Source: an uncultured Bacteroidota bacterium (GTDB lineage Bacteria; Bacteroidota; Ignavibacteria; Kryptoniales; JAKASW01). From it: 64,000 nucleotides of DNA. The notes below the pieces were generated by a model. It searched no databases. It had not been told where the DNA came from and saw nothing but the letters and a program-made list of their open reading frames with translations. Positions 7,739 through 61,800 of the stretch are shown one piece after another. Within the stretch, counting starts at the first letter, position 1; every line of letters starts with the position of its first letter. A program made the position numbers and the translations under genes. The stretch covers positions 824,177 to 888,176 of the forward strand of contig CAWEES010000002.1 in NCBI GenBank assembly GCA_963808245.1, read 5' to 3'.

Positions 7739-9868
7739 CTACTTAAGCAATACCATCTTCATTGTCCTGTCAAAATTTTTATTTATAAACCTGTAGAAAT
7801 ACACCCCGCTGGCGACCTCGACTCCGCCGGAATTTTTCCCGTTCCAAGTGACCTGGTAAGTCCCCGGCACATAGTTGTCGTTCGCAAGTACATCCACGAG
7901 CTGACCGATAGAGTTGTAGACGGATAAACTCACTCTCCCTGTAGTAGGCACTGAGAATTTTATAGTTGTGGAAGGGTTGAACGGGTTCGGATAGTTCTGT
8001 TCAAGTGCGAATGTGTGAGGAACCTGATCGGTGATCTGCTTCACCCCCGTTAGTGTTCCGATTGCTTTGGTCAGGAGCGCGAATGTGTATTTTGCATTGT
8101 GGACACCGTAACTGCCATCTTTGGAGATAAGAAGATAATCCCAGAGCGCCCCGAGCTGGTTTTGTGTAAGTCCCTTGCCGACAGTAGCGCTCGTCTGGTT
8201 CGCAAGAACGGAATCTGGGAGGAGCAATGCGACCTTACTCAACAATGCCTGGACTTCAGTTTGAACTCCAGGTACCGTACCTCCGTTGGCAATTCCCGCG
8301 TAGTCGTATGGTGCCTGCACCTGGTCGAAGTCGGTTATAGGTCCATGACAGGATTGACAGGCAGTAGTATTATCTGTCGTGTCTCCTGAGCTGTCCGGCC
8401 CGCTCATCTTCCATGTATGCCCTCCGAGAAGATTCATTGCTCTAAGGTCGACGCTGTCTGAAGCCATGTGGCACGTGACGCAAGCATCAGAAAGCTGGGT
8501 ATGCGTATTTTGACCGGCGATCGAGCTATCGCCAAACTGGTAACCATTCTCTCCAAAGAAAACATCCGTTTGAGGACCTTCATGCGGTCCAAATCTAGCA
8601 ATCCATCCTCCTTCGACCGACGCATTTGCGTCCGAGCGCGAGCGATGGCAATTCATGCAAAGTTCCCCAACACCTCCTCCGGATACCGCAAATCCATTTT
8701 CCAACGGATCAGCCGTCACTTTTCTAAGCTGGAACGGATTGGTTGCATCGTGAGGGTCATGGCACGATGCGCAAGTCAGAGGTATTCCGGCATAACTCGG
8801 CTGCAGCGAATTCCCGATTGCATAGTCTTCGAATCCCTCGCCGTTATGGCATCGAGCGCAAGTTGCGCTGCCGCTGTTTACCGTTGAAACCTCCGCTTGA
8901 ATCGCCGTCACACCGCTATCATGTGGGCTGCTTGTCCACATTCTTCCGATTGAATGGCCGGGGGGCGCATCGTGACACTGCATGCAGACTGAAGCGTTCA
9001 AGGAAACGGAAATCTTGGACGGATCGCCCCAGTGCTCGCTTCCCGGACCATGGCAGCTTTCACAGCCGATCGTTCCGAGCTGAGCGAGCTGCATTGATGA
9101 ATGGTACAAATGCGCAAAGTTAGTATCGACGAGTGTTGTTGGAAAAGTCCAGCCCGACTCAGACGCGACGGCCGCGAAGTTTCCATTCTGTGCTCCGGGA
9201 TTGTATCCAGTGGTGTGACACTTTATACAGTTCGAGGAATAATGAGAGCTGACCAATCCATTCACACCGTTCTTAAACATGGAGGCGTGTTCAGTTTGAA
9301 GCCAGTGAGAATAATCCGCAGTAGGATCAAATCCCAAACCGACCAACGCGCCCTGGTGGCAGGTTCCACATTCAGGAGCTACAGGAGATATTACTTTGCC
9401 GGTATTGTCTGATACCACACTGTCATTGCTAACTATTCCCATCGAACCAACCCCGACATAATCAGCGGAGTTCAACATAGCAGAAGCTTGCGATGTTCCA
9501 CCCGCAGTGGTAACAGAAACATTAATAGTATATTCACCTATCGTGTCCAACTTAATGGTTGTGAACGCTACTGATGGGCTATCTATCTGCGCATGGCCGC
9601 CCACCGGATCGATCACCGTCCAGCTTACACTTTGAATTGTTCCACCTGTCGAGTCGATCGCCCTAAGAAAGACAATTGTTTTCTCTCCCACGGTGCTCAA
9701 CCCCGTCGTGGCATACATCGAACTACCTGCGGACCCATACCTCTGCGTCAGGTCATACGGCGACATACCGACAATCATTACCCCCGCTCTAGGGGATACT
9801 GTCTGGGAAACCGCAAGCCCCGCATTCACACATATTACAGATAGACAAATCAGTAAATTCTTCCTCAT
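7739..9868 (-). CDS. Nonaheme c-type cytochrome with signal peptide and T9SS type-A C-terminal sorting domain
   Basis: Nine CxxCH motifs (CGTCH, CIKCH, CESCH, CMQCH, CARCH, CASCH, CMNCH, CVTCH, CQSCH), SYGVHN, and C-terminal EQNYPNPFNP...SGVYFY..KMVLLK. Confidence 0.9.
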   Translation of the reverse strand: MRKNLLICLSVICVNAGLAVSQTVSPRAGVMIVGMSPYDLTQRYGSAGSSMYATTGLSTVGEKTIVFLRAIDSTGGTIQSVSWTVIDPVGGHAQIDSPSVAFTTIKLDTIGEYTINVSVTTAGGTSQASAMLNSADYVGVGSMGIVSNDSVVSDNTGKVISPVAPECGTCHQGALVGLGFDPTADYSHWLQTEHASMFKNGVNGLVSSHYSSNCIKCHTTGYNPGAQNGNFAAVASESGWTFPTTLVDTNFAHLYHSSMQLAQLGTIGCESCHGPGSEHWGDPSKISVSLNASVCMQCHDAPPGHSIGRMWTSSPHDSGVTAIQAEVSTVNSGSATCARCHNGEGFEDYAIGNSLQPSYAGIPLTCASCHDPHDATNPFQLRKVTADPLENGFAVSGGGVGELCMNCHRSRSDANASVEGGWIARFGPHEGPQTDVFFGENGYQFGDSSIAGQNTHTQLSDACVTCHMASDSVDLRAMNLLGGHTWKMSGPDSSGDTTDNTTACQSCHGPITDFDQVQAPYDYAGIANGGTVPGVQTEVQALLSKVALLLPDSVLANQTSATVGKGLTQNQLGALWDYLLISKDGSYGVHNAKYTFALLTKAIGTLTGVKQITDQVPHTFALEQNYPNPFNPSTTIKFSVPTTGRVSLSVYNSIGQLVDVLANDNYVPGTYQVTWNGKNSGGVEVASGVYFYRFINKNFDRTMKMVLLK

Positions 9869-10016: not shown

Positions 10017-10400
10017 TCATGAAGGTTTTGTCTCGACTCTAATGAATCTGTGCAGGAATATTCCACATCCGCTGCCAACTGCCGCGATGACAAAAGTGAA
10101 TACTCCAAGCATAAGAATCGAGACGTAGGTGTTCGGGTGTATGGTGTCCGGCATACCGATGATATGCTTAATCAAATGGGCAAGCGGGAGACAAAACCAT
10201 GCGGTGATCGTGACGGGCCACGCACGCGAGCCCCAGACAACACCGGAGGCAGCAGTCGCAACAAACAACAAGGCGACAATTACGATTGGACTAACTTCAC
10301 CCCCAAATGCAAAATTGTCCACGGCAGATATAATTATTCCAAATGCAAGTCCGATGGCGGCCAGCGCCTGCCACCTAATTTGAGAATCGCTTTTGTTTAT
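10017..10400 (-). CDS. Small multi-pass membrane protein (start uncertain)
   Basis: Several hydrophobic segments. The frame stays open upstream of GTG 10322 to an ATA at 10400 that follows AGGAGG. Confidence 0.55.
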   Translation of the reverse strand: MNKSDSQIRWQALAAIGLAFGIIISAVDNFAFGGEVSPIVIVALLFVATAASGVVWGSRAWPVTITAWFCLPLAHLIKHIIGMPDTIHPNTYVSILMLGVFTFVIAAVGSGCGIFLHRFIRVETKPS

Positions 10401-10500: not shown

Positions 10501-10782
10501 TTACAATAACAGTGACGTTTTTTCAGAGGCATCCTTCGAAGTAATCACTGTATGTACTTCGAAATCAACAATGTCTTTCCAGTTGTCCATCCATTGCTCA
10601 AGCAACTTTCGGTCACTTGTCTCCATGACCTGGTAGCAACAGGTCATCGATTCATTCACCCAGCTTGAAACATAGACTAACCCTTCCGGAGCAAGTCGTC
10701 CTTTGTCTCGAAAACGGCGATAGACCGGAACGGCATCTCCATTCTTATATCTTTCGATGATCATGTATATGGTTTTCTGCAC
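10501..10782 (-). CDS. DUF3303-like small protein
   Basis: YMIIERYKNGDAVPVYRRFRDKGR..PEGL.YVSSWV...CYQVME...W.DIVDFEV pattern. Confidence 0.7.
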   Translation of the reverse strand: MQKTIYMIIERYKNGDAVPVYRRFRDKGRLAPEGLVYVSSWVNESMTCCYQVMETSDRKLLEQWMDNWKDIVDFEVHTVITSKDASEKTSLLL

Positions 10783-10963: not shown

Positions 10964-11737
10964 CTATTTCAACTCGAAGAGGAATTTCGCCAGTTCTCCC
11001 ACTAACTCCGCCGGTGATCCTATCCAATATTTCGCAGCGGTCCTCCGGTATTTCTTCCCGACAAAAACGCTCATCCCGCCTAATTCATTTACTCTTCTGA
11101 ATCCGTACTCATCCGTCGTATCGTCACCGAAGAATATCGGCAGCCCGGTTCTTTTTACCCTTCGCATAATTATCTCGATAGCATCGCCCTTGTCCCAGTC
11201 GACAGGTGCTTTTATCTCAACTACTTTCTTTCCGTGAAACACATCTATTTTCCCCCTGCGAAGCGGCTCCGAAATAATTTCGTTCAGCAAGCCTAAGAGC
11301 GGTTTTACTTTAACGGGCGCGACAGTGCGATAGTGAATGGAGACAGAGTAAATTTTAGAGTTTATCCTCGGTCGGTAAGGCCGAAGCTCACCTTCTATTC
11401 TTTTAGCAAGCGAAGTAATGTAAGAGGAAGATTTCGCTGAATTTGGCTCAACGAATTTCAATCCGGGCCCTTCGATTTCCACCCCGTGATTTCCCGAATA
11501 ATAGATACCTCTTATTCTCACAAGACTTTTTAATTCGCTAAGCTTTCGACCGCTAATAATTCCGACCGCCGATATCTTCGATAGCTCCTCAATAGCATGT
11601 CTCGCTATCGGCCTTAATCCGGCTTCTTCCGACGTTGGAACAATGTCTGCCAACGTCCCATCAAAGTCGAAAAAGAAAACGGGGATTTTGTCGGCAGCTT
11701 TTAAAAGAATTTTGTACGTGAATTTAGCAATAGACAT
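10964..11737 (-). CDS. otsB: Trehalose-6-phosphate phosphatase (HAD)
   Basis: FDFDGTL, ISGR, GNHGVE, WDKG, GDDTTDE. Confidence 0.92.
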   Translation of the reverse strand: MSIAKFTYKILLKAADKIPVFFFDFDGTLADIVPTSEEAGLRPIARHAIEELSKISAVGIISGRKLSELKSLVRIRGIYYSGNHGVEIEGPGLKFVEPNSAKSSSYITSLAKRIEGELRPYRPRINSKIYSVSIHYRTVAPVKVKPLLGLLNEIISEPLRRGKIDVFHGKKVVEIKAPVDWDKGDAIEIIMRRVKRTGLPIFFGDDTTDEYGFRRVNELGGMSVFVGKKYRRTAAKYWIGSPAELVGELAKFLFELK

Positions 11738-11835
11738 TCAAACTCGTTTCTAAAAAATGACGTCACAACGATATTCAATATGTTTGTGTTAATAAAACCA
11801 TTCCTAACGGCTAAAAGCTAATTGCAAACCGCCGC

Positions 11836-13056
11836 CTATAAATACTCAATGTCCTTATCATGGAACAGCGAAAGCGCAAGCAAAAGATAATCCCGCAGAT
11901 GTCGGGTAATCAGGAAATTTTGCCGTATATGTTCCCTGCCGTTTTTGCCAAGCTCTTCCGCAAAGTCCGGCTCATTGATCAGCTGCTTCATCCAGTATGC
12001 GGTTCCTTCGATGCTATGAGTCAGAATCCCGCTGTACTTATGTTTGACCTGCAGTGGAATCCCCCCCACCGCAGAAGCGATGACAGGCTTGGATTTCCAG
12101 AGCCCTTCCGCAACGGTCAATCCGAAACCTTCCTTCAACGACTTTTGCAGGATGACGCTCGAACCCCGCTGCAAGGCGTTTATTTCCAAATCACTCGAAG
12201 GAGGAAGGAGAAGCACGAATATATCTTTGTCGCCTTCGGCAGCCTGCCTGACTTCGCTCAAGACTTTTTCACCTTCCGGATCGTCCGTGGCGCCGCCGCC
12301 CGCGAGAACAAGCTGGCTGTCTATGTATCTTTTGATCAGTTTATAAGCTTTGATAACACCGACAGGATCTTTAAGATAATCGAAACGAGAGATCTGCGTG
12401 ATGACCGGACGGGACCTGTCGATCTTGAATCTCTCGAAGACGCTGTTGATATATGGCTCATCAAGGTCGCGATTCTTATCGCTTAACGGGTCGATTGACG
12501 GAGAGATCAGGAATTGCCTCGTCCTTAGCGGCCGGCTGAAAGCAGGAGCGGAAAAAATCGCCCCGTCGAATCTCTCTATGTAATCTTTCAGGAAGAGCCA
12601 GACATTTTCTCTCGGCTCGGAAAAATCTATGTGACATCGCCAGACCCATTTATTATCGAGATGAGTTCTCTCCTCGACCAACCCGATCGGCTGAGGGTCG
12701 TGTATGAATATCACGTTGCTGTCAAAATTCATCGTCCGGGCATTTTCCCTATCGACTTCCAGGAAATGATTCCATTCATCGTCTGTGAAACTTTCGTCCA
12801 CTCCATGCAGGGCATTATGCATTTTCTTCGTTATCGCGAAGAATCTCTCTCCTCCTTTTATGACATCCCATCTTGCCTGGACTCCCAGCTCGTTCATCAT
12901 CGGGACAAGACGTGTGAGGATTTCGGCAACGCCCCCGCCCACTGCGGTTGAATTGACATGCTGGATCGCCAGTGAATGCGCCTTGTCGCCAACCGTGAAC
13001 AGCTCGTCGATGATCGGCTTACCGACAATATCGATGTAATCTTTAACCTGGGCCAT
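11836..13056 (-). CDS. treT: Trehalose glycosyl-transferring synthase TreT (GT4)
   Basis: HVNSTAVGGGVAEIL, IHDPQP, WRCHID, SRFDYLKDP, KEGFGLTVAEGLWK. Confidence 0.88.
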   Translation of the reverse strand: MAQVKDYIDIVGKPIIDELFTVGDKAHSLAIQHVNSTAVGGGVAEILTRLVPMMNELGVQARWDVIKGGERFFAITKKMHNALHGVDESFTDDEWNHFLEVDRENARTMNFDSNVIFIHDPQPIGLVEERTHLDNKWVWRCHIDFSEPRENVWLFLKDYIERFDGAIFSAPAFSRPLRTRQFLISPSIDPLSDKNRDLDEPYINSVFERFKIDRSRPVITQISRFDYLKDPVGVIKAYKLIKRYIDSQLVLAGGGATDDPEGEKVLSEVRQAAEGDKDIFVLLLPPSSDLEINALQRGSSVILQKSLKEGFGLTVAEGLWKSKPVIASAVGGIPLQVKHKYSGILTHSIEGTAYWMKQLINEPDFAEELGKNGREHIRQNFLITRHLRDYLLLALSLFHDKDIEYL

Positions 13057-13702
13057 GGCCAACTATCCTCAGAAGTCTTTCTCTCAAGCCCTCAAGGGTG
13101 AAAGTGTAAGGGTCGAGTCGAGAGATCAGGTTCGCTTCCCTTTCCCTCCCAGCCTCACGAAGCCAGATCGAAAAATCATTATCGCCTTTCTCCAGCCGGA
13201 GCTTTGCCTCGAACATATGGAAATAAATAGAATGGATGCTTACGGTCTTCAGTCCCTCTCTGAATTCATTCACGTCGCCGGCAACCTTCCCTGTGGGAAC
13301 AACAAATATATGCGAGCTCATGAAGTGGAATTCTTCACCGTCAGGACATCTCCGCCTAACGCTGTGATCCACGGTCTTCAAATATTCGTCGAGCAGCTCA
13401 AGGAATCGCCGCCTGAGATCAGTCAGTTTGGTGAACTGCATAATGTCGATGCTTGCTAATTTTTCTCCCGCTACCTCATCATTAAGTTCATTTGTCGTCC
13501 AATATGCGAAATCGTTCGGCGGCTCCGGGGAAAGGAAATGATGCTGCTGCAAGAACCGATGCGTGTGATGATAAATGGACGAGAGCGGTACCGTCTTTAT
13601 CCCGTCCACCAGCTCAGGGAGTGTAGCTGCCCTTCGCCCGAGGAGTTCGGTGAGCACCAATCTCGATTTGAATTCAAAAGGCGTGGCGGTCACCTCACTC
13701 AC
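13043..13702 (-). CDS. DUF5752 / OrfY-like TreT-associated protein
   Basis: Two-fold internal repeat (SIYHH...NDFAYW; SIYFH...NDFSIW), located immediately upstream of treT. Confidence 0.75.
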   Translation of the reverse strand: MSEVTATPFEFKSRLVLTELLGRRAATLPELVDGIKTVPLSSIYHHTHRFLQQHHFLSPEPPNDFAYWTTNELNDEVAGEKLASIDIMQFTKLTDLRRRFLELLDEYLKTVDHSVRRRCPDGEEFHFMSSHIFVVPTGKVAGDVNEFREGLKTVSIHSIYFHMFEAKLRLEKGDNDFSIWLREAGREREANLISRLDPYTFTLEGLRERLLRIVGHGPG

Positions 13703-14717
13703 CTTCTTTATTCATGTACAGTGTACGAACCGGGAACGGGATGACGATACCTTCCTTATCGTACCTCTCTTTGAGTCTTTTTATAAACTCGTGCTTCATT
13801 AGATACTGGTCCACGTAAGTATTCCCGCGGAGAATTACTGAAAATTTTATCGCGGAATCTCCGAACTCGTTGTAGCGTACAAACGGCTCGAAATCCTTTT
13901 GCGCGCCCTTAACTGTTTTCTGGATGTCGCGGGCAACGTCAACTGTGATGGCCTCCACTTTCCGCAAATCACTCGAATAATCCACACCGAGATTAAACGA
14001 TATGGATACATCCGGCTTGGGTTTTTCGAAATTTGTTACAATAAGATTATCGATGTTTTTGTTCGGGACAATTACATGATTTCCCGAAAGCGTTCTGATT
14101 ACCGTCGCACGCCAATTTAAATCTTCAACGAAGCCTTCATCGCCGCTGCTAAGCCGGATATAATTTCCGACCTGTATTTGTCTGGCGACGAGTATCTGCA
14201 ATCCCGAGAAGAAATTTGATAGCGTCTCCTGCATTCCAAGTCCGATTGCAATGCCGCCGACACCCAATGCGGTCAGCATGGGAGCTATCGATACGTGCAA
14301 ATCGTCCAGGATGATGAGAATGCCTGTCGAATAAACAACAATCCTTACCACGTTTTTCAAAAGACTCGTCGCCGACGCGAGTCCTTCGATGACCGATTTA
14401 TAATACTCGACCATCTCAGTGCCGATATGAGACACGGCCACCGTTACCGAAAATATTACAAGAACCCCAAGGGTTTTCGCAAAATTCTCGCTCGCATCGC
14501 GTGGAAGGCCCTGAGTCTGGATCAGAATGTAAACCCCCAGCGCAAGCGACCAAAATAAAACGGAGCTTCTCAATGCACCGATGACAATATCGTCGAACCG
14601 CCACCTGGTCTTTTTTGCTAATCTTTGCAGGATAACGAGGACACCGTTCCGGAGAAAGATTCCGGCAATGAGTGAACCGACGATAACCGCCAACGGGACA
14701 ATCAACTGTTCAACCAT
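13695..14717 (-). CDS. mscS: MscS small-conductance mechanosensitive channel
   Basis: ALGVGGIAIGLGMQETLSNFFSG, G.VEDLNWRAT, VPN, GIVIPFP. Start uncertain (14717-14765). Confidence 0.9.
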   Translation of the reverse strand: MVEQLIVPLAVIVGSLIAGIFLRNGVLVILQRLAKKTRWRFDDIVIGALRSSVLFWSLALGVYILIQTQGLPRDASENFAKTLGVLVIFSVTVAVSHIGTEMVEYYKSVIEGLASATSLLKNVVRIVVYSTGILIILDDLHVSIAPMLTALGVGGIAIGLGMQETLSNFFSGLQILVARQIQVGNYIRLSSGDEGFVEDLNWRATVIRTLSGNHVIVPNKNIDNLIVTNFEKPKPDVSISFNLGVDYSSDLRKVEAITVDVARDIQKTVKGAQKDFEPFVRYNEFGDSAIKFSVILRGNTYVDQYLMKHEFIKRLKERYDKEGIVIPFPVRTLYMNKEGE

Positions 14718-16209
14718 TGATAACTTCAGCATCATACTCGACAAACTCGAAGTCAAATATTTCACTCAATAACTTAGCGGCCCATCTGTAAACGTTTTGG
14801 TGCCCCACTACTTCCCTCATCTTCAACATCCTCTTCTTTTGTTCCTCGGATGACATCTCGACCGCCGTCTTTATCGCACCGGCAATGCCATCAGTGTAGT
14901 ACGGATTAACCTGAAGTGCATCCGACAGTTCCCTGGCGGCGCCCGTGAACTCGCTGAGGACCAATGTTCCTGTCAAATCATTTTTTGAAGCGACAAATTC
15001 TTTTGCCACAAGGTTCATCCCATCATGAAGAGATGTGACCATCTCAATGTCTGCGATCCCATTCCATGCGGTTAACGATTCCTTGGAGTGATTAGCGCGA
15101 ACAAATATTATCGGCTTCCACCCCAAAGATTGGTATTTCTGGTTTATACTGATCATAAGATAATTCAGGGCATCGTTTAACTCTCTATATTCGGGAATTT
15201 GCATTCTGCTTAAGGCTCCTAATTGGACAAAGACGAACTTGCCGACATATTCCGGATTCATCTCCAGGAAACGATCGATTGCCTGGAACCTTTCCATTAT
15301 TCCTTTCGTGTAGTCGATCCGGTCAATACCGATGGCAACAATTTTGTTTTTCAAACGATATTTTAAAACAAGGTCCTGTCGAATATTTTCGATTTGTTTG
15401 TCGGATGAAAGCTGGGAGACCTGGTCGAGATCTATTCCGATAGGAAATGATCGCACCGTGGTTTTGCGACCGCCCTTCGTTATCTTCGACATATCATACT
15501 CTACCCGTGCCTCGAGAAACCGGTTAACGCTATCGAGAAAATTCATGACGTGAAATTGTGTTTGAAAGGCCAGGAGATCGTTGTACAAAAGGCTATCCAG
15601 CAGTTCTTCCTTGAAAGGGAGAATCCGTACCACTTCACTGTTGGGCCACGGGATATGCCAGAACTGGGCCGTGACGACATTTTTAACTCTTTCTTTCACC
15701 ATGCGGGCAAGATTTGCAAAGTGATAACCCTGTATGAACACAAACGCCGGTCGGTCGCCGGCTATTTCAGCGATCGCATCCGCAAATTTTCCCTGCACAG
15801 ATTTATACACCTGGTAATCGCCGGCCTCGAATTTCGGCCTTACATAAGCAACATGGCACAGCGGCCACAACCCCTTGTTGGCAAAATTATAGTAAAATCC
15901 GGTTTCCTCTTCCTTAGTCAGAAAGACCCGCTTCAGAGTAAATTCAGAACTACCCGGTGGACAGGCGAGTTCGTTCGCATTATTTATGACAAGCCTATCA
16001 GCTTCCCCGGAAGCCTGAGCAACCCAGTACCCCCCACTCGCTTCCATGATCGGACTAAGAGCGGTAACAAGTCCGCCGGGGGGAACGTAATATTTTATTT
16101 CATCGCCCTCGAAATAGTGGACATAAGGTTCGCGATTGGAGACAACTATAAGAAGCCGATCTCCGAGCTTGGATTTTATTAACTCTGATAATCTTCCTCT
16201 TGTCCACAT
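14710..16209 (-). CDS. otsA: Trehalose-6-phosphate synthase (GT20)
   Basis: [52 protein letters not shown]. Start ATG 16209. Confidence 0.9.
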
Positions 16210-16223
16210 ACTACCCAATATAT

Positions 16224-16297
16224 AAAAAAAAGACAAAAGTCAAAGGTTAAAACTTTTTCAGAATTCTTTCGAATTCTTATTATTAACCTTTGACTTT
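16224..16297 (-). terminator. ssrA terminator-like hairpin (15-bp perfect stem, 32-nt loop, T-tract)
   Basis: AAAGTCAAAGGTTAA (16236-16250) pairs with TTAACCTTTGACTTT (16283-16297). An 8-T run follows on the - strand. Confidence 0.6.
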
Positions 16298-39491: not shown

Positions 39492-41438
39492 TTAGTTCGA
39501 AACGAATGTCGTCACACTCGATGGACCCAGTGTAGTTATGAAGCTGCCGTTAGATAGCGCGATATTATTCCCTTGCAAACAATTCTCTGTGCTCGATGTA
39601 ACGTATGGCGTATACGAACTTGCCGTTCCACCTTGCACAGTGAACGGTAGAGTCACCGCAGTGGAGCCCATATTTAAAGCTACGATCACTACTTTTGCGC
39701 CATTCCTGTAAGCTGTCACAAACGTATTCGACACGGGGCTCGCGGTAGCACTGACGCGATAAAACCCGGGACGAACAAATCTGGCGAATTGAGATATGAC
39801 ATATCCTTTATGAGTTACATTGCCGGTGTTTGCGGAATTGAATTGACCATCATCGATTGGACCATAAAATCTTACAATGTACCACCAAACGTAGGCGCTC
39901 ATATTGTAACTCATGCAATCATTAATAGTCTTCGCTGTCTGCATGGCGCCAGCCCAGCCCGTGTCAACACTAGTAGGATTTGTGTTGGAGCCGCTATTTA
40001 TCAAATATTCCGTCATCCACAACTCTTTTCCTTTTTGCAGAGCAAGGGGATATTGAACTGACGATTGAACGTCACCTTTAGTATCGACATCTCCGTACAA
40101 ATGTCCGCCTATAAAGGCAACATGCGCCGCGGCAAGAGAATCGTTGAGCGTTGAATCAGAGAGCGAATGTCTATAACCCTCAGATTCAGGCATGAAAACA
40201 GGGACGCCAACCGCCGGTGCATTGTACCTCATGAAGTTCATAAATTGCGTCGCATTCCAGTCACACGATTGATAAGATACGCCGGCATCCGGTTCGTTTT
40301 GAACGGAGATACCGTATAATGATACCCCATGTTCAGTCATGGTATCGGCGAATGCCTTCAGATGTGCGGCGTATGCCGCATAATCACTCTGAATAAGAGA
40401 GCCGCCAGCAGTGGTATCATTGGTCTTCATCCATGAAGGAGGCGTCCATGGTGTTGCAATAATTGTCGCGCCGAGATTCTGAGCGGCCAGCGCCGAAGGG
40501 GCATTAGCGGCAAACTGTGTAGAGTCAGGCGGAATGGAAAGGCGCATTATGGTCAGCCCAACCTGTCCTGTGCCATTGCCGAATGCCGTCTGCACTTCGG
40601 CGGGTGTCATGTCTGGACGGAAAATTAAAGTGTTTGCTCCGCCGAATCCTCTTATGATTTGTTTGGTACTGTCAAGATATACGATTGCTTGAGGGAGGCT
40701 AACACTGAAATTGATTGACGTGTCGCTTTGAATGACGGTGTTGCCGAATTGTTTGGACACGATTGTGGGCGAAGTGCTGTCGGTATTTGATATTTCGACC
40801 ACAAAAGTTTCTGAACTGGAAAGAATCCCATTAGGAGCACTTTGAATTTCGTCAGCTCCCATCATTGCTTGCGATGATACTATCCCTGGAAGCAGGACTG
40901 AATTCGCGCTTCCTCCCACTCCGAATACCATTTTCCTAACTTGAGCTTCACCGCCGGCTTGAAGCTTATAGAAATAGACTCCGGGCACAACCTCTTTGCC
41001 AAAATCGTTTCTGCCATTCCACACTATGCCGTGAGATCCTGCCGCCTGGTAACCGGCATCGAATCTCCGTATCTCTCTCCCAAGGACATCGTAAATCGAC
41101 ACCTTTACATCTGACTGATTTTTCAACGCGTACGATATGGCGGTAGAGGATGAAAACGGGTTTGGATAATTCTGCTCGAGTTTGAAATCTTTAGGCGGCT
41201 GACTCGCTTGCTTCACTGCCGTAATCGGACTGAGTGAAAAAGCTCCCGTTGAGTCTGTCACCGCATTGTATTGGATGGAGAAGTTATAACTGTCTAAGAA
41301 AGTGATCGACGCATACCGGACAGGGATCCCGGATGCAGTCACGATACCCTTGACGGAATACGTATTCGCACGAACGGAAAACGGAATAGCTGCCAGCATT
41401 GTTAGAGCCAACAAAAGATTTATTTGTGCATTTTTCAT
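39492..41438 (-). CDS. GH30_8 glucuronoxylanase with internal T9SS-CTD-like domain (paralog A)
   Basis: IRGFGG, TPWTPP.WMK, SVQNEPD, WMTE, AYVWWYIVRFYG. EQNYPNPF lies near the N-terminus. Confidence 0.9.
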   Translation of the reverse strand: MKNAQINLLLALTMLAAIPFSVRANTYSVKGIVTASGIPVRYASITFLDSYNFSIQYNAVTDSTGAFSLSPITAVKQASQPPKDFKLEQNYPNPFSSSTAISYALKNQSDVKVSIYDVLGREIRRFDAGYQAAGSHGIVWNGRNDFGKEVVPGVYFYKLQAGGEAQVRKMVFGVGGSANSVLLPGIVSSQAMMGADEIQSAPNGILSSSETFVVEISNTDSTSPTIVSKQFGNTVIQSDTSINFSVSLPQAIVYLDSTKQIIRGFGGANTLIFRPDMTPAEVQTAFGNGTGQVGLTIMRLSIPPDSTQFAANAPSALAAQNLGATIIATPWTPPSWMKTNDTTAGGSLIQSDYAAYAAHLKAFADTMTEHGVSLYGISVQNEPDAGVSYQSCDWNATQFMNFMRYNAPAVGVPVFMPESEGYRHSLSDSTLNDSLAAAHVAFIGGHLYGDVDTKGDVQSSVQYPLALQKGKELWMTEYLINSGSNTNPTSVDTGWAGAMQTAKTINDCMSYNMSAYVWWYIVRFYGPIDDGQFNSANTGNVTHKGYVISQFARFVRPGFYRVSATASPVSNTFVTAYRNGAKVVIVALNMGSTAVTLPFTVQGGTASSYTPYVTSSTENCLQGNNIALSNGSFITTLGPSSVTTFVSN

Positions 41439-41518: not shown

Positions 41519-42868
41519 TCAAGATTTTTTTTTAACTAAAACAAGTTCTTTCATCGTGCTAAATCTCTCCGACGCAATACGGTACAAGTAAACGCCGCTC
41601 GGAAGACAATCGGCATTGAATGTGACATTGTAATATCCCGCGTTTTGAGTTTCGTTTACCAGTGTCGCGACCTCTCGGCCTATTGAGTCGTGTACTTTCA
41701 AAGTAACATGGCTCGCTGCGGGAATCTGGTAATCGATGATCGTGGACGGATTGAATGGGTTCGGATAGTTTTGCAGGAGCTCCGTCGACGATGGTATGTC
41801 AAACAGGTGTTGCCGTTTCATCCCTACGGTGGTGGCTCCGACAAGAACAGCACTTCCGCTATTGGGAATTACATCAAATATGACGTATTCCAGGGAATCT
41901 ACTTTCACTATCTGTGAATTTAACTGTTTTCCATTTTGATAGACATCGGCTGAAGACCAATTCTTTGGAAGTTGTCTGCGGACAGTAAGAGGCAAATCGA
42001 AGAGAGAATCGTTGAGGCTGTCGGTCAACTGCACGACAATAGTGTCTTCCTGATTGGCGATTTCCGATACCTTCGCCGAATTTCTTTCTTTTATATATTT
42101 GACAACATTTCCGAACGTCGAGACCCAGAACTTTTCAGGATTCGCACTCAAATACTGCAGGCTTGCCCTGAGCGTATCTGAAGAGAGCGGCGAGTACCCA
42201 CCGTCATTATCAATTCCATGAATTAGATAGACACACCAACCGTTCGACTTAACCGCGTTGTCGGCATTGGTTTTGAAATCCGCGCCCGTTTTCACTGACC
42301 CAACTGCCCCGCAGATTATAGAACTAATATTCATAAAATCCCTGGGGGTCTTAGCTTCTATATATCCCTGGCAGCCGCGTGCGGCAATATAATACTGAGA
42401 AATCATTGCGGCGTTCCCTTCAGCGCAATACGGATATGCTACCGTGGTACATTTCTGTCCGTTGATATGAGCATTAATAATGCTTTGTGAATTTTGCAAC
42501 TCAGTCAATTGCAGGGAGTCAGACAGACTGTCTAAGTAAGGGTGTGACATGGTGTGACTGCCAATTTCATTTCCCCTTGCGGCGGCACCCTGCAAGCCAG
42601 ACCAATTCGGGCTCCAATTTACGACCGTGAACAGGGTTAAGTTGAAATTGAACTGGTTGAACATGGGCACCGCGATGGCAAGCTGGTTGGAGCAATTATC
42701 GTCGAACGTATAGCTTATCGCTGCCGACCGGAATCCCCGCCAAGTGCCGATTTGATAAGAGTCGGGAACCGATTGTGATAGGCACCTGTAATTGGACAAT
42801 AGTAAAAGGACTAAAACACTGCGCCGCAACCAATGGCGAGTGAGACCTTTCAAAATTAAAATGTACAT
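41519..42868 (-). CDS. CE4 polysaccharide deacetylase (likely acetylxylan esterase) with T9SS CTD
   Basis: YTFDD, GSHTMSH, AYPY, C-terminal QNYPNPFNP. Confidence 0.85.
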   Translation of the reverse strand: MYILILKGLTRHWLRRSVLVLLLLSNYRCLSQSVPDSYQIGTWRGFRSAAISYTFDDNCSNQLAIAVPMFNQFNFNLTLFTVVNWSPNWSGLQGAAARGNEIGSHTMSHPYLDSLSDSLQLTELQNSQSIINAHINGQKCTTVAYPYCAEGNAAMISQYYIAARGCQGYIEAKTPRDFMNISSIICGAVGSVKTGADFKTNADNAVKSNGWCVYLIHGIDNDGGYSPLSSDTLRASLQYLSANPEKFWVSTFGNVVKYIKERNSAKVSEIANQEDTIVVQLTDSLNDSLFDLPLTVRRQLPKNWSSADVYQNGKQLNSQIVKVDSLEYVIFDVIPNSGSAVLVGATTVGMKRQHLFDIPSSTELLQNYPNPFNPSTIIDYQIPAASHVTLKVHDSIGREVATLVNETQNAGYYNVTFNADCLPSGVYLYRIASERFSTMKELVLVKKKS

Positions 42869-43024: not shown

Positions 43025-44908
43025 TTAGTTCGACACAAACGTCGTCACACTCGAGGCGTCCAGAGTAGCTTCAAAATTGCCGCCAGATACGCTCACGTTG
43101 TTTCCCTGGGCGCAACTCTTGGTGCTCGAGGTTTCATAAGGTATAAATGAACCGACTGATCCATTTTGCAGACTAAATTCCATAGTGACCGGGGTTGACC
43201 CCTGGTTAACCACAACAATAACAACCTTTGCGCCATCCTTATAAGCCGTCACGTACACATTCGATACAGGGCTCTGGGTAGCACTAACGCGGTAGTACCC
43301 CGGCCTCACAAATCTCGCATTCTGGGACATGATGTATCCTCTTTTCGTGGGATTGCCGCTTTGATCGAGCGGGCCCCACGATACCATTATGTACCACCAC
43401 ACATAAGCGGACATATCGGCATTCATGCAATCGTTGATTTCTTTGCCAACAGGAAGCGCAGCGACCCAGTTGTTTCCGGAATCTGCGTCGGTGGTGTAAT
43501 GTTCGGTCATCCACACTTCTTTCCCTTGCTTTATCGCAAGCGGATAAGTAGATGGGCTCATTCCATAAATGTGTTCGCCAATAAAAGCAACATGGGAAGC
43601 GGCAACCGAATCATTTAATGTCGAATCCGACAATTGACGGACGAAGCTTTCAGACTCGGGCATGAAGACCGGCACACCGACAGACGGTGCATAGTTCTTC
43701 ATGAAATTGACAAACTGCGTCGCATTCCAGTCGCATGATTCGTAAGTCACGTTAGCATCAGGCTCGTTTTGGACCGAGATCGCATAAATCGAAACGCCAT
43801 GGCTTGACATTGTGTCTGCGAATGCTTTCAGATGTGCGGCGTATGCCGCGTAATCACTTTGAACAAGATAGCCGCCAGCAATGTTGTCGTTGGTCTTCAT
43901 CCAAGCGGGGGGCGTCCATGGCGTCGCAATAATCGCGGCACCTAAGTCCTGAGCCGTCAGGGCCGACCGAACATTGGCGCTGAACTGCGTGGAATCAGGT
44001 GAGATCCGAAGACGCATTATCGTGAACCCTAATTGCCCAACACCGTTGCCGAAGGCTGTCAGCACCTCGGTCGAAGTCATGTCGGGGACCCAGCCCACTA
44101 TGTTTGCGGCTCCAAACCCTCTTATGATTTGCTGGGTACTGTCAAGATACACGATAGCTTGCGGAAGAGCCACGCTGAAGTCGAGTGTCGTGTCGCTTTG
44201 AAGGACGACACCGCCTACTTGTTTTGGTACGATTGTGGGTGAAGTGCTGTCGGTATTCGATATTTCAACCACAAATGTCTCTGAACTAGAAAGAGTCGTG
44301 CCAGGCACGCTCCGAATTTCACCAACTCCTGTCTTCGTTTGGGAATGCATTACTCCCGACAGCAGTCCTGAATTCGTGTTTTCCCCTACTCCAAATAACA
44401 TCTTCCTGACCTGAGTTTTACCGTCCGCTTGAAGACGGCATAAATATACCCCCGGCATCACCACTCTCCCCAAATCGTTTCTTCCATTCCAAACTACCCC
44501 ATAAGTTCCCGCCGACTGAAATCCAACTTCGAATGTCCTTATCTCTCTCCCAAGAACATCGTATATGGTCACCTTCACATCCGACTGCTCCTCCAATTTG
44601 TACGATATGGAGGTCGAGGCTGAAAACGGATTTGGATAATTCTGTTCGAGATGAAATTTTTGAGGCAGCTGACTCTCCTGCTTCACTGCCGTGATCGAGC
44701 TCAGCGTAAACGCTCCTGTCGAATCAGTCTCCGCATTGTATTGAATGGAAAAATCATAACTGTCGTAGAAGGTGATCGATGCATATCGGACAGGGTTTCC
44801 CGATGTGGTTACTGTGCCTTTGACCTTGTACGTCTCCGCGCGAACAGAAAATGGAACAATCGCAAACATCGATAGAACCACCAAAATATTTAAGTAAATA
44901 CTCTTCAC
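43025..44908 (-). CDS. GH30_8-type xylanase with internal T9SS-CTD-like domain (paralog B)
   Basis: Same architecture as paralog A with long shared nucleotide tracts. SVQNEPD, WMTE, AYVWWYIMVSWG. Confidence 0.9.
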   Translation of the reverse strand: MKSIYLNILVVLSMFAIVPFSVRAETYKVKGTVTTSGNPVRYASITFYDSYDFSIQYNAETDSTGAFTLSSITAVKQESQLPQKFHLEQNYPNPFSASTSISYKLEEQSDVKVTIYDVLGREIRTFEVGFQSAGTYGVVWNGRNDLGRVVMPGVYLCRLQADGKTQVRKMLFGVGENTNSGLLSGVMHSQTKTGVGEIRSVPGTTLSSSETFVVEISNTDSTSPTIVPKQVGGVVLQSDTTLDFSVALPQAIVYLDSTQQIIRGFGAANIVGWVPDMTSTEVLTAFGNGVGQLGFTIMRLRISPDSTQFSANVRSALTAQDLGAAIIATPWTPPAWMKTNDNIAGGYLVQSDYAAYAAHLKAFADTMSSHGVSIYAISVQNEPDANVTYESCDWNATQFVNFMKNYAPSVGVPVFMPESESFVRQLSDSTLNDSVAASHVAFIGEHIYGMSPSTYPLAIKQGKEVWMTEHYTTDADSGNNWVAALPVGKEINDCMNADMSAYVWWYIMVSWGPLDQSGNPTKRGYIMSQNARFVRPGYYRVSATQSPVSNVYVTAYKDGAKVVIVVVNQGSTPVTMEFSLQNGSVGSFIPYETSSTKSCAQGNNVSVSGGNFEATLDASSVTTFVSN

Positions 44909-44935: not shown

Positions 44936-46507
44936 TCATTTCAAAAGTGTAAGTTTCCTTGTTTCACCGTTTGAACCAGCGATCAATCGGTAAAAGTAAA
45001 CTCCGCTTGGTAAACCAGCCCCATTGAACGTTATGCTATGTGTTCCAGCACTCTGTCTCTCATCAACGAGCGTGGTTATCTCTCTACCAAGTGCATCATA
45101 AACTTTCAAAACGACGTGAGTCGCAGCAGGAATCTGATAATCGATGACTGTCGTCGGGTTGAAAGGATTTGGATAGTTTTGAGATAAAGAGAACGAGGCA
45201 GGGATTTCTTTGGAGTCTCTCACGCCGGTGGTTATAGAGTCTCCCGTTGTAAAACTCACGGGGGCAGCGAAATCGCCTGTGTCGCTTGCATTCATCGCGG
45301 CAACATGCCAGTAATACTTTGTATTCGCGTTTAGCGGTGACAGCTGAAAAACAGTATCCGATACCGTCGAATCTAGCACTATGGAAGAGAACATGTTGTC
45401 GGTTGCCACCTGCAAACGATATGAAGATGCGGCAATTGATGAATGCCACATGATAAGAGGATTGCGCGGTTCACCTGTTGTATCGGCAGCCGGGGATATT
45501 ACAACAGGCTGCAACAAGTACTTTACTAAATATGTTCGCAGCCACTGGAGAGCTGGACGCTCTGACCCGTCTGAGTTCACTAAATACGCATACGGCTCCC
45601 ACGTCTGACCGTAAGTATATCCCCAAAAAGTTATTCCCTTGACGCCCGGGTTCTCAAATAGCATCGGGAATATTGACTTGTAATCATTCAACTGATGTGT
45701 GTCGTTTGTGTCGTTGATTGCAAATTCGGAAATGTAAATAGGCAACCCAGTGGCAGCTAACTTATTTAAGTTTGCTTTCATCGTAGATAGAGAGGCGCCA
45801 CCGGTCGCAACTTCAAAAGAATGCGCTTGTACCCCTATGCCGTCAATCAGCCCTCTTACCTTCAACGAGTCGATGAGGTTGATATATGTTGCGGTGTTAC
45901 TGTTGCTATTGATTATACTATATTCGTTCACAAGAAGCTTTGTATTGGGCGACCAGTATTCCCTTGCCAGTTTGAACGCGTTGATTACCCAGTCCCAGCC
46001 TGTCTTGCCGGTTCCGCCGAGGGCAGTCTTATAAATTGTAGGAAGGGGAGTATGTATCGGCTCGTTGACAACATCACAGAGAGCCGCGTCGGGATATCTT
46101 TGTCCACAAGAGTCGATCCAGTTTACTATTTCCTGGTACAGTTGCGCCGAATCAAGACCTGTAATGAAGCTCGGATATTGCGAGCCCCAGATCAGATTAT
46201 GCTCCTTGAAAGGGAAACCGTTTAGGATAGCATAATTGTAATCATTATCGAGAGCGGTCCAGCTGTAAACACCGGGATTGCTTTCGACGCTCCCCCACTT
46301 ACCGTCATTCTCCGGAGTTACCTGATCCCAATAAGTGGCAAAATCCGAGCGAATGCTGTAGGCATTATGAATAACATTTCCCACGAATTTGCTCCTGCCA
46401 AGGGCCAATTGCGAAAAAGACCGGGACGGGAAGATAAAAATAATAAGTAAAGCACATACGTGAATGGTCAATAAACCTCTGATGAATAACCTGAAATTAA
46501 ATAACAT
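44936..46507 (-). CDS. GH10 xylanase + Fn3-like domain + T9SS CTD
   Basis: VTPENDGKW, DVVNEP, YISEF, TKYYWHV, QNYPNPFNP. Confidence 0.93.
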   Translation of the reverse strand: MLFNFRLFIRGLLTIHVCALLIIFIFPSRSFSQLALGRSKFVGNVIHNAYSIRSDFATYWDQVTPENDGKWGSVESNPGVYSWTALDNDYNYAILNGFPFKEHNLIWGSQYPSFITGLDSAQLYQEIVNWIDSCGQRYPDAALCDVVNEPIHTPLPTIYKTALGGTGKTGWDWVINAFKLAREYWSPNTKLLVNEYSIINSNSNTATYINLIDSLKVRGLIDGIGVQAHSFEVATGGASLSTMKANLNKLAATGLPIYISEFAINDTNDTHQLNDYKSIFPMLFENPGVKGITFWGYTYGQTWEPYAYLVNSDGSERPALQWLRTYLVKYLLQPVVISPAADTTGEPRNPLIMWHSSIAASSYRLQVATDNMFSSIVLDSTVSDTVFQLSPLNANTKYYWHVAAMNASDTGDFAAPVSFTTGDSITTGVRDSKEIPASFSLSQNYPNPFNPTTVIDYQIPAATHVVLKVYDALGREITTLVDERQSAGTHSITFNGAGLPSGVYFYRLIAGSNGETRKLTLLK

Positions 46508-58866: not shown

Positions 58867-61800
58867 TTACTTCAAGAAAAGGAGCTTTTTCAACGCCGTG
58901 AAATTACTGGAACCATCGACAGGACGAGCTTGAATCCGGCAGAAGTAAACGCCGCTGCTCAAAGTTGATGGATTCCACTGGACGCTTTGCTCACTTGCTT
59001 GCTGCATCCCATCGACTAATTTCGCGACCTCTCGACCGAGTACGTCGTAGATTATGACCTGAACATAAGCGTTCTTCGGAAGGTCATAACGAATCGTCGT
59101 TGAGGGGTTGAACGGGTTCGGATAGTTCTGGTATAGTGCGAACACCTTCGGAACTACGCCGTTGCCGAATGCACGTACACCCAAAACTCCAGTCCCAGTT
59201 TTGAAAACTGTAGGAGACGAGAATGCACCTTCGCCACCCAAATTGATGGAGCTTGCGCGCCAGTAATAGGTCGTGCTTGCTGCAAGCGTATCTGAAATTT
59301 GCAGTGTTGTGTCTGCAATCATCGTAGTGTCTGCTACAACGTCACCAGAGAAATCGCTGGCTGTTGCAACTTGCAGATGATACCACTGCGCGTTCACTGC
59401 CGGGCTCCATGTGAATGTCGACTTTCTCGGCCACGTTGGGACGCCAGCCGCCGATTTCGGTGACACCGTTAGAGGCGATATGGGGACTTCAATGACGCTT
59501 GTGAATGAATCGACCGCAGTGTAGTTACTCGGACCACCTTGGTTGAAGCAGAGTACTTTCCAATAATAGTAGGCACGATTCAACAACCCGCTATTAATCG
59601 TCCATGAGGTATCATGCTTCGTCGTATCGACCATGAGAACCTGACCGCCGGTGTTGTAGGTCCATAATTGGGCAACATAGTTGCTATCCCCAGCTTCATG
59701 GCGCCATGTCAGAGTCAGAGGATTGACCGGTACGTTGGCCTGATTGACCGATGGATGTATAAGCGTGGGCACCGCTGGTAGATACATAATTGTAAATGAA
59801 TCCACCGGTGAGAATGCTGACGATCCGGCAGGATTGTATCCACGCACACGCCAGTAGTAGGTGTGGCTTGGTGTCAAAGCTGTTGTGATCGCCCAGGTCG
59901 TATCGAAATCACTGGTCGAATCGTTGACAACGAATCCACTCGTGTTCGTGAATCCTTTCGCTGAATCAGACCTGACCTGGAAATGATAAGTAGATGCTAT
60001 AGGTACATAGCTGACTACCAATGTAGGTTTGTTGCCCACAGTTGTTGATTGGTTCGCCGGCAATAGCTGTACCGGGGTTATGGTATCAGCCACTACTCTC
60101 GTACGGAAGCTGTCGATCGCCGAATATGGTCCCGGGACGAGATTGTCGAGCGCCTGCACGCGCCAATAGTACTTGGTGGAAAGTCCAAGTCTGGTTGTCG
60201 TGCTGGTTCCTGCCACTCCTGAGAGTGTCTTCACTATCGTGGAGAATGCCAGGTTTGAAGCGATTTGGACCTGATACGTGGTGGTACCACTTCCAGTTGT
60301 CGCAGCGTTCCAGCTCAATGTATCAGTGTTTGCCAGAGAGGTATCGTGCACCGCATATGACGGCCTTATAGTCGTAGGTGCAGATGGGATGACCGATCCT
60401 TCCTGAATCTTGTAGTACGCGTTTAGCGGAATAGTATTATTCGCAGCACCGAACACATATGTGTGGCTTGTGTTATCCGGCCACCAAACATTAACACTGT
60501 CAATCTTCGAAGCTGTGCCGAGACCGAAGTTTGCGTTCAATGATCCGGCCATGCCTGCGGACCCGCCTTCTGCTTTGATGACGCGGATTTGCTTCGTCGC
60601 TCCCGTGTACACGGTGAACTTTGCTCCGATCGCCGACATGTTGTGGCCTGTACCGACCGGGATAAAGCCAACCCATTTGTTGGCGTTGCCGTTGTTCTTC
60701 TGTATCCATGCAGAGCCACCAGTATACTGGAATATGTCAAGGAAGCCGTCTTTATTGTAGTCAACAAAGCCTCCCGCTCGCGAATTATTTCCCGCAACGG
60801 CATCGAGGGTTGCTACATCAGTGAACGTGCCATCACCGTTGTTCCTGTACAAATGTGCGCCTCCGTTGGTCACGCTTGTGTATATATCTTCCAACCCGTC
60901 ATTATTGTAGTCGCCTACGTCGATTGCGCGTTGGTGTGTGTCTTGAACCAATCCGTTGTTGGCAACGACGGCTGTTCCATTCCACTTATACGTGTATGTG
61001 CCGTCTCCTTTTCCGTACAGGATAACATCGCCCACTAGTTTTCTATTGCCGTCCCTGTTATCGTTCGCGTTAAGTCCGTTCAAAACGAGATCTTCGTTTC
61101 CATCATTGTTGAGGTCACCCCATTGCTCGCCAATGGCAGCGAAGTGGCGCAGTGTATCGTCAACAATAATACCTGTATCAGAATGGGTAAGGGTTTCAAG
61201 GCTGGCATATTCAATACTGTCAATAGTCCCGGCCTTATTAAGCACTACAGAATCGAGGACATAGATTGGACGGCCCAGGGATGTGAAATTTGGAACAATA
61301 AATTTGCCGGTTCCATCATTCAGGAACATGACGCATCCCTTTCGACCACCATCTGTACTGGCACCAACTCTGGTATATCCATTTCGAAAGCTCGGCATCA
61401 ATAAGTCCTGCCAGCCGTCATTATTTGCATCGAAGAAGCGGACATCCCAAGATTCATATGAAAGGCTACTGTCTATGCCATAATTTGCACCAGTTGCTCC
61501 TTTTCCTATATCGGTAAAGCCGCTTGGACCTCCTTTAAGGAGCCATATACCTCCGTTGCGGGCATATGGTCCTGAACTGGCATCAATATTTGTGAAGTTT
61601 CCGGGCCACGCAACACTGAGGTAATTGCTGTGATCAATTGGTGCTGCCGCAAGCCCCTGGAAGACTTCGCCGGTGACTCCCGCCGTAGCGAGATCGCCTA
61701 TCCCGGTTGCTGCCTTGAATACTCCGGCCGTGTCATAAAATAAACCACCGCTTGGACTTCCGCCATTGGTGGTAAACAAGTCAGGAACTCCGTCACCATT

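Follow-up and report, generated by a model that had tools for sequence, protein, structure and literature searches.

Gene and protein architecture

The window analysed here is the whole stretch of 64,000 nucleotides from an uncultured Bacteroidota bacterium (contig CAWEES010000002.1, positions 824,177 to 888,176). An intact gene on its minus strand, at 7739-9868, encodes a 709-amino acid (aa) precursor of a nonaheme cytochrome c according to the open reading frame (ORF) listing and translation. The precursor, referred to below as the target, ends in a type IX secretion system (T9SS) sorting domain. The gene and the parts of its product are as follows.

7739..9868, minus strand: whole gene, including the stop codon (7739-7741); nonaheme cytochrome c precursor of 709 aa
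9806..9868, minus strand: predicted Sec signal peptide, residues 1-21, likely cleaved between AVS and Q (inspection of the sequence)
9464..9787, minus strand: PKD/Ig-like beta-sandwich N-domain, residues ~28-135 (AlphaFold2 and Foldseek)
8039..9391, minus strand: nonaheme core, residues 160-610, with nine CxxCH motifs and a C-terminal helical bundle carrying GVHNAKY (heme motifs, family profile)
7742..8008, minus strand: type A T9SS C-terminal sorting domain, residues ~621-709 (TIGR04183, profile, Foldseek)

The target is probably, with moderate confidence, an OcwA-like cytochrome that is exported by the T9SS and takes part in extracellular electron transfer. This is suggested by its domain architecture, the homology to OcwA and OmhA, the conservation of the sorting tag across the family, and the translocon, attachment and maturation genes of the genome.

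An earlier sequence-only reading had described a Sec signal, an Ig/PKD-like N-region, nine CxxCH motifs and a terminal sorting domain, and each of these features was recovered. The nine motifs are at residues 167, 214, 269, 295, 337, 366, 404, 463 and 504. All Cys residues outside the signal peptide lie within CxxCH motifs, and a motif scan of the whole protein found neither CxxCK nor longer heme-motif variants. Since all nine motifs are kept in relatives, the nine-heme pattern is, as judged from the alignment, not a product of chance. The N-terminus has the MRK start, hydrophobic stretch and AVS-Q site of a Sec/SPI-type signal by inspection only, and AlphaFold2 (AF2) models residues 2-19 as a helix. 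Inspection of the sequence showed no lipobox or membrane anchor in the protein.

The N-domain scores below threshold for Pfam PKD families (PKD_4 E 0.052, 14 bits in the target; E 1.6e-4 in a paralogue of the same genome). AF2 predicts a confident beta-sandwich for residues ~28-135, with a block predicted local distance difference test score (pLDDT) of 73-93. Foldseek finds it to resemble the solved PKD domains of ColG/ColH and AAVR, with a template modelling score on the target (TMt) of 0.6-0.7. The domain stands alongside the heme core in nearly all family members.

The C-terminal sorting domain (CTD) matches TIGR04183 with 30.3 bits against a cut-off of 23. The match spans residues 626-706 of 709, which is the extreme C-terminus. 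The corresponding Pfam model PF18962 scores 25.7, slightly below its cut-off of 27. The domain resembles the Ig-like domains of PorZ, PorU and FlgD in Foldseek, and the family profile also matches the CTD of PorU (6za2, E 1.3e-5). Its motifs NYPNPFNP and KMxLLK are present in 21/21 aligned sequences. A CTD behind a Sec signal is the architecture of a T9SS cargo, as the earlier reading had proposed.

The gene has AAGGAG ~8 nt 5' of its ATG. The nonsynonymous divergence (dN) from orthologues is ~0.19 and the synonymous divergence (dS) is saturated, which is consistent with purifying selection. Promoter and terminator scans around the gene gave matches at chance level only, and the base composition at the locus carries no island signal. 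The gene was also detected in metagenomes of soil and of freshwater sediment from a single study, possibly the source sample.

The heme core

The core of the target is, by profile similarity, a member of the OcwA/OmhA family within the NrfA/c554/octaheme superfamily. A profile of 21 family members was searched against solved structures and matched OcwA (PDB 6I5B) with E 7.2e-22 and 80.8 bits, and OmhA (PDB 6QVM) with E 1.7e-18. Cytochrome c554 (E 2.8e-7), NrfA (E 4.7e-7), the octaheme nitrite reductase (E 5e-6) and MccA (E 2e-5) were matched more weakly. When the target was searched as a single sequence, the best match among solved structures was OmhA (E 7.9e-7, residues 213-607), and OcwA gave E 0.007. 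Both structures are of surface terminal reductases from thermophilic Gram-positive bacteria. In the profile alignment the nine heme motifs of the target pair one to one with the nine of OcwA. Both proteins have CxxCHM at heme 8 and a C-terminal helical bundle with GVHN. The GVHNAKY of the target aligns with GVHNYDL in the three-helix bundle region of OcwA, and AF2 places helices at target residues 535-607.

OcwA is the nonaheme cell-surface terminal reductase of Thermincola potens (PMC6703420). Its hemes comprise six with bis-His and one with His-Met coordination, and two open ones (hemes 2 and 5), each under a His-His pair; hemes 1-4 are c554-like and hemes 5-9 are NrfA-like (PMC6703420). OmhA is a secreted 11-heme cytochrome which is up-regulated on ferrihydrite (PMC7829351). 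The same source places OcwA among nonahemes of Gram-negative bacteria, and secretion is not mentioned in that context (PMC7829351). The target shares with OcwA a predicted role beyond the cytoplasmic membrane. However, sequence identity between the two is low, and OcwA is located on a Gram-positive cell wall and lacks both the PKD-like N-domain and the T9SS tag.

Conservation was counted over 241 full core domains out of 267 stored proteins. Heme motifs 2-9 are retained in at least 237/241 cores and motif 1 in only 209/241, which accounts for the eight-heme members of the family. His194, 279, 316, 373, 429, 484 and 590, together with Met468, are each present in at least 236/241 cores. At least five of these seven near-invariant His outside the motifs, which are candidate distal ligands, align with His residues of OcwA.

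The two pockets which are open in OcwA differ in the target. At heme 2 the target has Gly-His, with His305 aligned to the second His of OcwA. This second His is present in 186/241 cores, including the target, and the full His-His pair in 95/241. At heme 5 the His-His pair of OcwA is replaced by Phe-Gly, and the coordination is not readable from the sequence. The family seems to share the OcwA scaffold and perhaps one open heme, not both pockets. By analogy with OcwA, one heme pocket of the target may be able to bind small molecules.

These pockets bear on the alternative that the target is a T9SS-exported enzyme acting on soluble small molecules such as nitrite, hydroxylamine, sulfur oxyanions or peroxide, rather than a reductase of minerals or electrodes. 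The core lies in the NrfA/c554/octaheme superfamily, some homologues are automatically named nitrite reductase c552 and carry PF02335, and OcwA is itself active on nitrite and hydroxylamine, which it reduces at its open hemes 2 and 5 (PMC6703420). The widespread second His at heme 2, His305 in the target, fits such a function as well. However, the target has no CxxCK catalytic motif, has Phe-Gly in place of the His-His pair at heme 5, and has a paralogue in its own genome which lacks even the heme-2 His (Asn-Glu at this position). The nitrite turnover of OcwA is very slow, at ~1 per min (PMC6703420). A small-molecule enzyme beyond the outer membrane would also need the same electron supply as a mineral reductase. 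This alternative seems quite unlikely, and the assignment as an OcwA-like electron-transfer cytochrome is preferred.

NrfA, the octaheme nitrite reductase, MccA and c554 share a superfamily with the target but differ from it in heme number, and those enzymes are periplasmic and encoded in operons with their partners. Membership in the NrfA pentaheme nitrite reductases was rejected because the CxxCK active-site motif is absent. The MtrC/OmcA decahemes were also considered. The target gives 54.7 bits with PF22113 (MtrC/MtrF domains II/IV), but scores 19.3 with the NCBIfam OmcA/MtrC model TIGR03507 against a cut-off of 209.3, has nine hemes instead of ten, and has no lipobox; membership was therefore rejected.

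Family spread and conservation of the sorting domain

The family is large, with 509 homologues at E <= 0.001 among 7998 scored candidates. Their source names include Candidatus Kryptoniota/Kryptonia, Bacteroidota, Ignavibacteriales, Latescibacterota and KSB1. The core is full in 114 of the 120 homologues listed, and a CTD ends 113 of these 114. Nine hemes are present in 88 of the 113 tagged proteins, eight in 24 and eighteen in 1. NCBI already labels members as 'T9SS type A sorting domain-containing protein'. In the Atlas the nearest cluster comprises 1184 members; PF18962 is found in 98% of them, and the commonest label is Ignavibacteriota.

A library of representatives at 50% identity gave 393 matches at E <= 1e-30 and sampled the family more broadly. 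The core is present in 148 of the best 150 of these 393, and is full in 127. The CTD is found at the end of 79 of the 127 full-core proteins and is absent from 48. In a FastTree phylogeny of 119 representatives the CTD state changes 10 times, compared with 34.6 times when labels are shuffled. The target falls in a clade of 34 representatives (support 99), all of which have the CTD. The members without CTD form separate clades with other C-terminal modules.

The tagless members often have a ~150-aa C-terminal module ending ...FYRVxxxP, and others end ...DYPxxxLRGP...W..Y. Such alternative C-termini occur in P0124, P0175, P0177, P0208, P0209, P0227, P0229, P0232, P0236, P0250 and P0259, and may serve other lineages for sorting or anchoring. 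Tandem units of PKD-like domain and nonaheme core, two or three per protein, are another form among the members without CTD and were seen in P0122, P0123, P0124, P0128, P0130 and P0134. P0122 has the largest heme count of these tandem repeats (1946 aa, 24 hemes).

The distribution was also followed in 401 evenly drawn Bacteroidota genomes, including the target genome. The core was found in 49 of them, a count which includes the target genome: 47 among ~98 genomes of its own class and 1 among ~302 of other classes. It was found in no genome of several large families (for example 0/87, 0/61 and 0/28 genomes), and one of these families is GldM-positive in 28/28 genomes. Absence from those lineages would explain why the T9SS literature is silent on such cargo. 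A search of genome contigs keyed on the CTD kept 80 loci, 78 of which match the CTD alone, and no named cultured carrier of the cytochrome emerged.

Secretion and maturation machinery

The target genome (4.05 Mb, 2 contigs, 97.7% complete) contains 148 TIGR04183 matches, all but one above the cut-off. SprA was found with 910.5 bits in a frame of 2435 aa, PorU with 925.7 bits, PorZ with 311.1 bits and PorD with 213.8 bits. PorU is above its cut-off in 97/101 genomes of the class. Cytochrome c maturation, on which the earlier reading also depended, is represented by four PF01578 matches above the cut-off and a ccmB-C-E-F-like gene row which scores below equivalog cut-offs. Some twenty ORFs of the genome have at least two CxxCH motifs. 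By a CTD profile built in this work 139 ORFs end in a CTD, and CxxCH occurs among them only in the target and one paralogue.

The genome also encodes a second PorU-like protein of ~1630 aa (C2:2332336-2336604), which matches the N-terminal two thirds of the PorU model with ~240 bits and is conserved in many genomes of the class. The window itself holds a cluster of six T9SS cargo genes on the minus strand. ORFs 41519-42868, 44936-46507, 58867-62103 and 62349-63989 end in TIGR04183, and ORFs 39492-41438 and 43025-44908 have a TIGR04183-like match near the N-terminus.

Candidate electron supply

The sequence-only reading had noted that the target gene has no porin or quinol oxidase neighbour. 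A lack of porin-cytochrome genes holds for this neighbourhood only, and the genome has three relevant modules elsewhere on contig 2. At C2:470800-478210 (L027:6804-14172) there is a CbcL-like quinol oxidase, a 906-aa protein in which 18 hemes are fused to a cytochrome b561 domain. After it come a c554-like tetraheme, a protein of 488 aa with no family, and ORFs with 14, 4 and 2 hemes, the last with the Geobacter motif CxxxxCH...CxxCH. The locus at C2:672720-678200 (L028:6805-12220) encodes proteins with 20 hemes and with 10 hemes (the latter 289 aa), a 537-aa protein and a flavin/Fe-S oxidoreductase. The third module is a Rieske/cytochrome b cluster with 11- and 4-heme proteins.

The 537-aa protein has a signal peptide and matches no Pfam or NCBIfam family. 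It and all 11 fetched homologues end ...RF or ...HF. AF2 models it (mean pLDDT 78) as a small N-domain followed by 22 long strands. Foldseek ranks 1-50 are all outer-membrane barrels (ushers and porins), with 357 matches at E <= 0.001. The order multiheme, decaheme, barrel and oxidoreductase is repeated in G269 and G392 from another family of the class. A barrel of the MtrB/PioB family (PF11854) was not found in the target genome. The cluster, on its modelled barrel, looks like a porin-cytochrome conduit which is analogous rather than homologous to MtrAB.

One genome from a different family of the class has a homologue of the target next to a sigma-54 regulator, a pair of NapC/NirT-type multihemes, a cytochrome b and two further CTD proteins. 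This neighbourhood is the sole direct gene-neighbourhood link to respiration seen.

Proposed path and evidence weighed against it

The proposed path would begin with Sec export of the cytochrome to the periplasm, where Ccm-type maturation would attach the hemes covalently and the protein would fold. PorV at the SprA translocon would recognise the C-terminal type A domain, and the folded holo-protein would pass the outer membrane. The PorU sortase would then remove the tag, and the protein would be attached to the cell surface through the PorU/PorV/PorZ complex or be released. Its nine close-packed hemes could hand respiratory electrons to Fe(III) or Mn(IV) minerals, humics, electrodes or partner cells, which would make the target a putative metal or humic reductase. 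Electrons would presumably flow outward to these partners, and the decaheme and 22-strand barrel module is a candidate for the step that carries them across the outer membrane. The use of folded mCherry-CTD fusions as T9SS model substrates (PMC10994853) speaks for export in the folded state.

Several results weigh against this path. The lack of detectable GldKLMN is the main weakness of the proposed export. In the species studied, transport through the T9SS is powered by the GldLM motor together with a ring or hub. In Flavobacterium, the GldLM motor powers T9SS transport and deletion of gldL stalls substrates on SprA (PMC10994853). Of the T9SS core genes named in the sequence-only reading, SprA, PorU and PorV are present in the target genome, and the models used detected no GldK, GldL, GldM or GldN. 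Profile searches of this genome found no GldM (TIGR03517, PF12081), no GldN (TIGR03523) and no GldL (TIGR03513, best E 0.01). Three proteins with a formylglycine-generating enzyme (FGE)-sulfatase domain were considered as PorK/GldK candidates and rejected, two being kinase-associated and the third EgtB-like and located beside nirK. PorV, which adjoins PorU, scores 247 bits, slightly under the cut-off of 250. The gap extends across the class, with GldM in 0 of ~98 sampled genomes, compared with 103 GldM-positive genomes from other classes of that sample. Since the search models derive from Bacteroidia, divergent forms of GldKLMN may be missed.

It is possible that the CTD is an Ig-like domain not used for export, or that the T9SS lacks a motor, so that the target stays in the periplasm as an ordinary electron carrier. 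The missing GldK, GldL, GldM and GldN in the genome and of GldM across the class agree with this, and the 48/127 diverse members without CTD indicate that the core works without it. However, such retention in the periplasm is very unlikely. SprA, PorU, PorV, PorZ and PorD are kept along with ~148 CTD matches, PorU is nearly universal in the class, and such gene retention is hard to explain without working export. In addition, the CTD closes nearly all of the close full-length homologues listed, its terminal motifs are invariant in the alignment, and the CTD-less members belong to clades of their own with other C-terminal modules. The many tagged proteins and the retained translocon and attachment genes argue that the T9SS works. 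The class-wide GldKLMN gap beside near-universal PorU suggests that the T9SS of the class is more likely divergent than dead; it may run without the known motor and ring, or with versions of them that are unrecognisable.

The electron supply has its own difficulties. There is no porin, cytochrome or quinol oxidase within ~10 kb of the target gene, so the gene is stand-alone as first described. Co-occurrence of the barrel and the cytochrome is weak: in the class sample both are present in 20 genomes, the cytochrome only in 27, the barrel only in 10 and neither in 41, and these genomes are related rather than independent. In this sample the two genomes of the same family each have the cytochrome but no barrel; therefore, the cytochrome is not dependent on this conduit.

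Many type A CTD proteins of species other than Porphyromonas, as in Flavobacterium, are released rather than anchored. Release of the target to the medium, matrix or vesicles as a soluble or matrix carrier, like the secreted cytochromes of Geobacter, would be a variant of the proposed path. A stand-alone gene untied to a conduit operon, the weak co-occurrence with the candidate barrel and the lack of a lipobox or membrane anchor in the target are all compatible with it. The presence of PorU, PorV and PorZ fits anchoring instead, although this is not decisive for the target as cargo. Release without attachment is considered unlikely, and an extracellular electron-transfer cytochrome exported by the T9SS remains the favoured assignment.

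Two further points also count against that assignment. Searches surfaced no RNA, proteomic or biochemical record of any family member. The AF2 model of the heme core, built from a 21-sequence alignment, is of low confidence (mean pLDDT 62, predicted template modelling score 0.46, core mostly <50). The top Foldseek match is 6qvm, with a template modelling score on the query (TMq) of 0.18 for the core, which is too uncertain for a test of the fold. Only the PKD-like and CTD domains of the predicted model are taken as reliable, and because of the low core confidence the fold comparison rests on sequence profiles.

A wider proposal would be that the class runs a T9SS without recognisable GldKLMN, whose PorU/PorV/PorZ complex fixes folded, heme-loaded OcwA-like cytochromes to lipopolysaccharide (LPS) as an electro-active coat, and that decaheme-barrel conduits not of the MtrB type wire this coat to the respiratory chain. 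On this proposal the class would have a third independent Gram-negative pathway of extracellular electron transfer beside the Mtr-type and Geobacter-type pathways. This proposal is possible but doubtful.

Genomic setting and history of this copy

The target gene is flanked on one side by convergent groES/groEL. On the other side the first neighbour is a small unannotated ORF (10017-10322, minus strand), which is hydrophobic and membrane-like, ~100 aa long and without a family; then come a DUF3303 gene (10501-10782, minus strand) and genes for trehalose synthesis. The region 10964-16236 (minus strand) encodes a trehalose-phosphatase, a TreT-like synthase, a DUF5752 protein, an MscS channel and an OtsA-type GT20 enzyme. 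A search of 24 congeners detected the DUF3303 gene in only 1 of them.

The orthologues have a different setting. The order PFK, cytochrome(s), RNase HII and NfeD is found in 10/12 same-genus loci examined, and the remaining two are too short to show their flanks. None of the 12 loci has groEL beside the orthologue. All four loci with long flanks have PorD a few kb beyond the orthologue. A tandem pair, formed by a 52-55% copy and a 66-75% copy, is present at this locus in 10/24 same-genus genomes, and in one of the ten the second copy is fragmented.

The target genome also has a paralogue at the conserved locus (L004:7975-10074), which is 699 aa long, 70% identical to the target, and has nine hemes and a CTD. 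This paralogue groups with the syntenic orthologues of other species (support 99); the branch of the target is longer and lies outside this clade. A recent duplication within the genome was therefore rejected as the origin of the target. Gene order and phylogeny indicate that the target is an extra dispersed copy in a variable spot by groEL, either an old paralogue or acquired from a congener.

PorD (213.8 bits) and a weakly matching barrel of the PorV/PorQ family lie ~4 kb from the conserved locus (L004:14266-16157, C2:2222265-2224156). Elsewhere the genome encodes a NirK copper nitrite reductase (364.9 bits) with a C-terminal cytochrome c domain (L005:2550-4073, C2:3244549-3246072), and a Crp/Fnr regulator is encoded upstream of it.

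Relation to known systems

The cytochromes that Gram-negative bacteria are known to place outside the cell are exported by the type II secretion system (T2SS), as in Shewanella and Geobacter, or leave by polymerisation. MtrC in particular is a T2SS substrate. MtrC and OmcA of Shewanella have the same proposed job as the target, namely that of a surface multiheme fed by a periplasmic decaheme in an outer-membrane barrel. However, the target has nine hemes rather than ten, is not a lipoprotein and does not belong to their family. OmhA of Carboxydothermus ferrireducens (6QVM) is likewise secreted and is linked to ferrihydrite respiration (PMC7829351), but it has eleven hemes and no CTD and is associated with a Gram-positive S-layer according to its PDB entry title. 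The type A CTD cargo proteins (gingipains, RemA/RemZ and chitinase) share the Sec signal and terminal TIGR04183 with the target. Unlike them, the target has a covalently heme-loaded redox protein as passenger and a host lineage with no detectable GldKLMN.

A literature search found no paper linking the T9SS or type IX secretion with multiheme cytochromes; nonaheme relatives from Gram-negative bacteria may be included in Table S5 and Figure 7A of PMC7829351. Searches joining OcwA with Ignavibacteria, or Kryptonia with cytochrome and iron, returned nothing relevant. In the part of it available, a paper on Melioribacter respiration covers oxygen and arsenate and not the target cytochrome family (PMC5492636). 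A T9SS review makes no mention of Chlorobi, Fibrobacteres or Ignavibacteria (PMC5445135).

Implications

If the proposed path is correct, the SprA translocon can pass a redox protein that is covalently loaded with its cofactors. With a T9SS route, the range of extracellular electron transfer would come to include Ignavibacteria/Kryptonia-type bacteria and further lineages of the Fibrobacteres-Chlorobi-Bacteroidetes (FCB) group. The missing detectable GldLM beside near-universal PorU raises the question of what powers type IX export outside Bacteroidia. The link to OcwA provides a concrete biochemical template for the family. The target cytochrome points to a scarcely studied means by which soil and sediment bacteria of this group could bring electron-transfer proteins to the outside of the cell.

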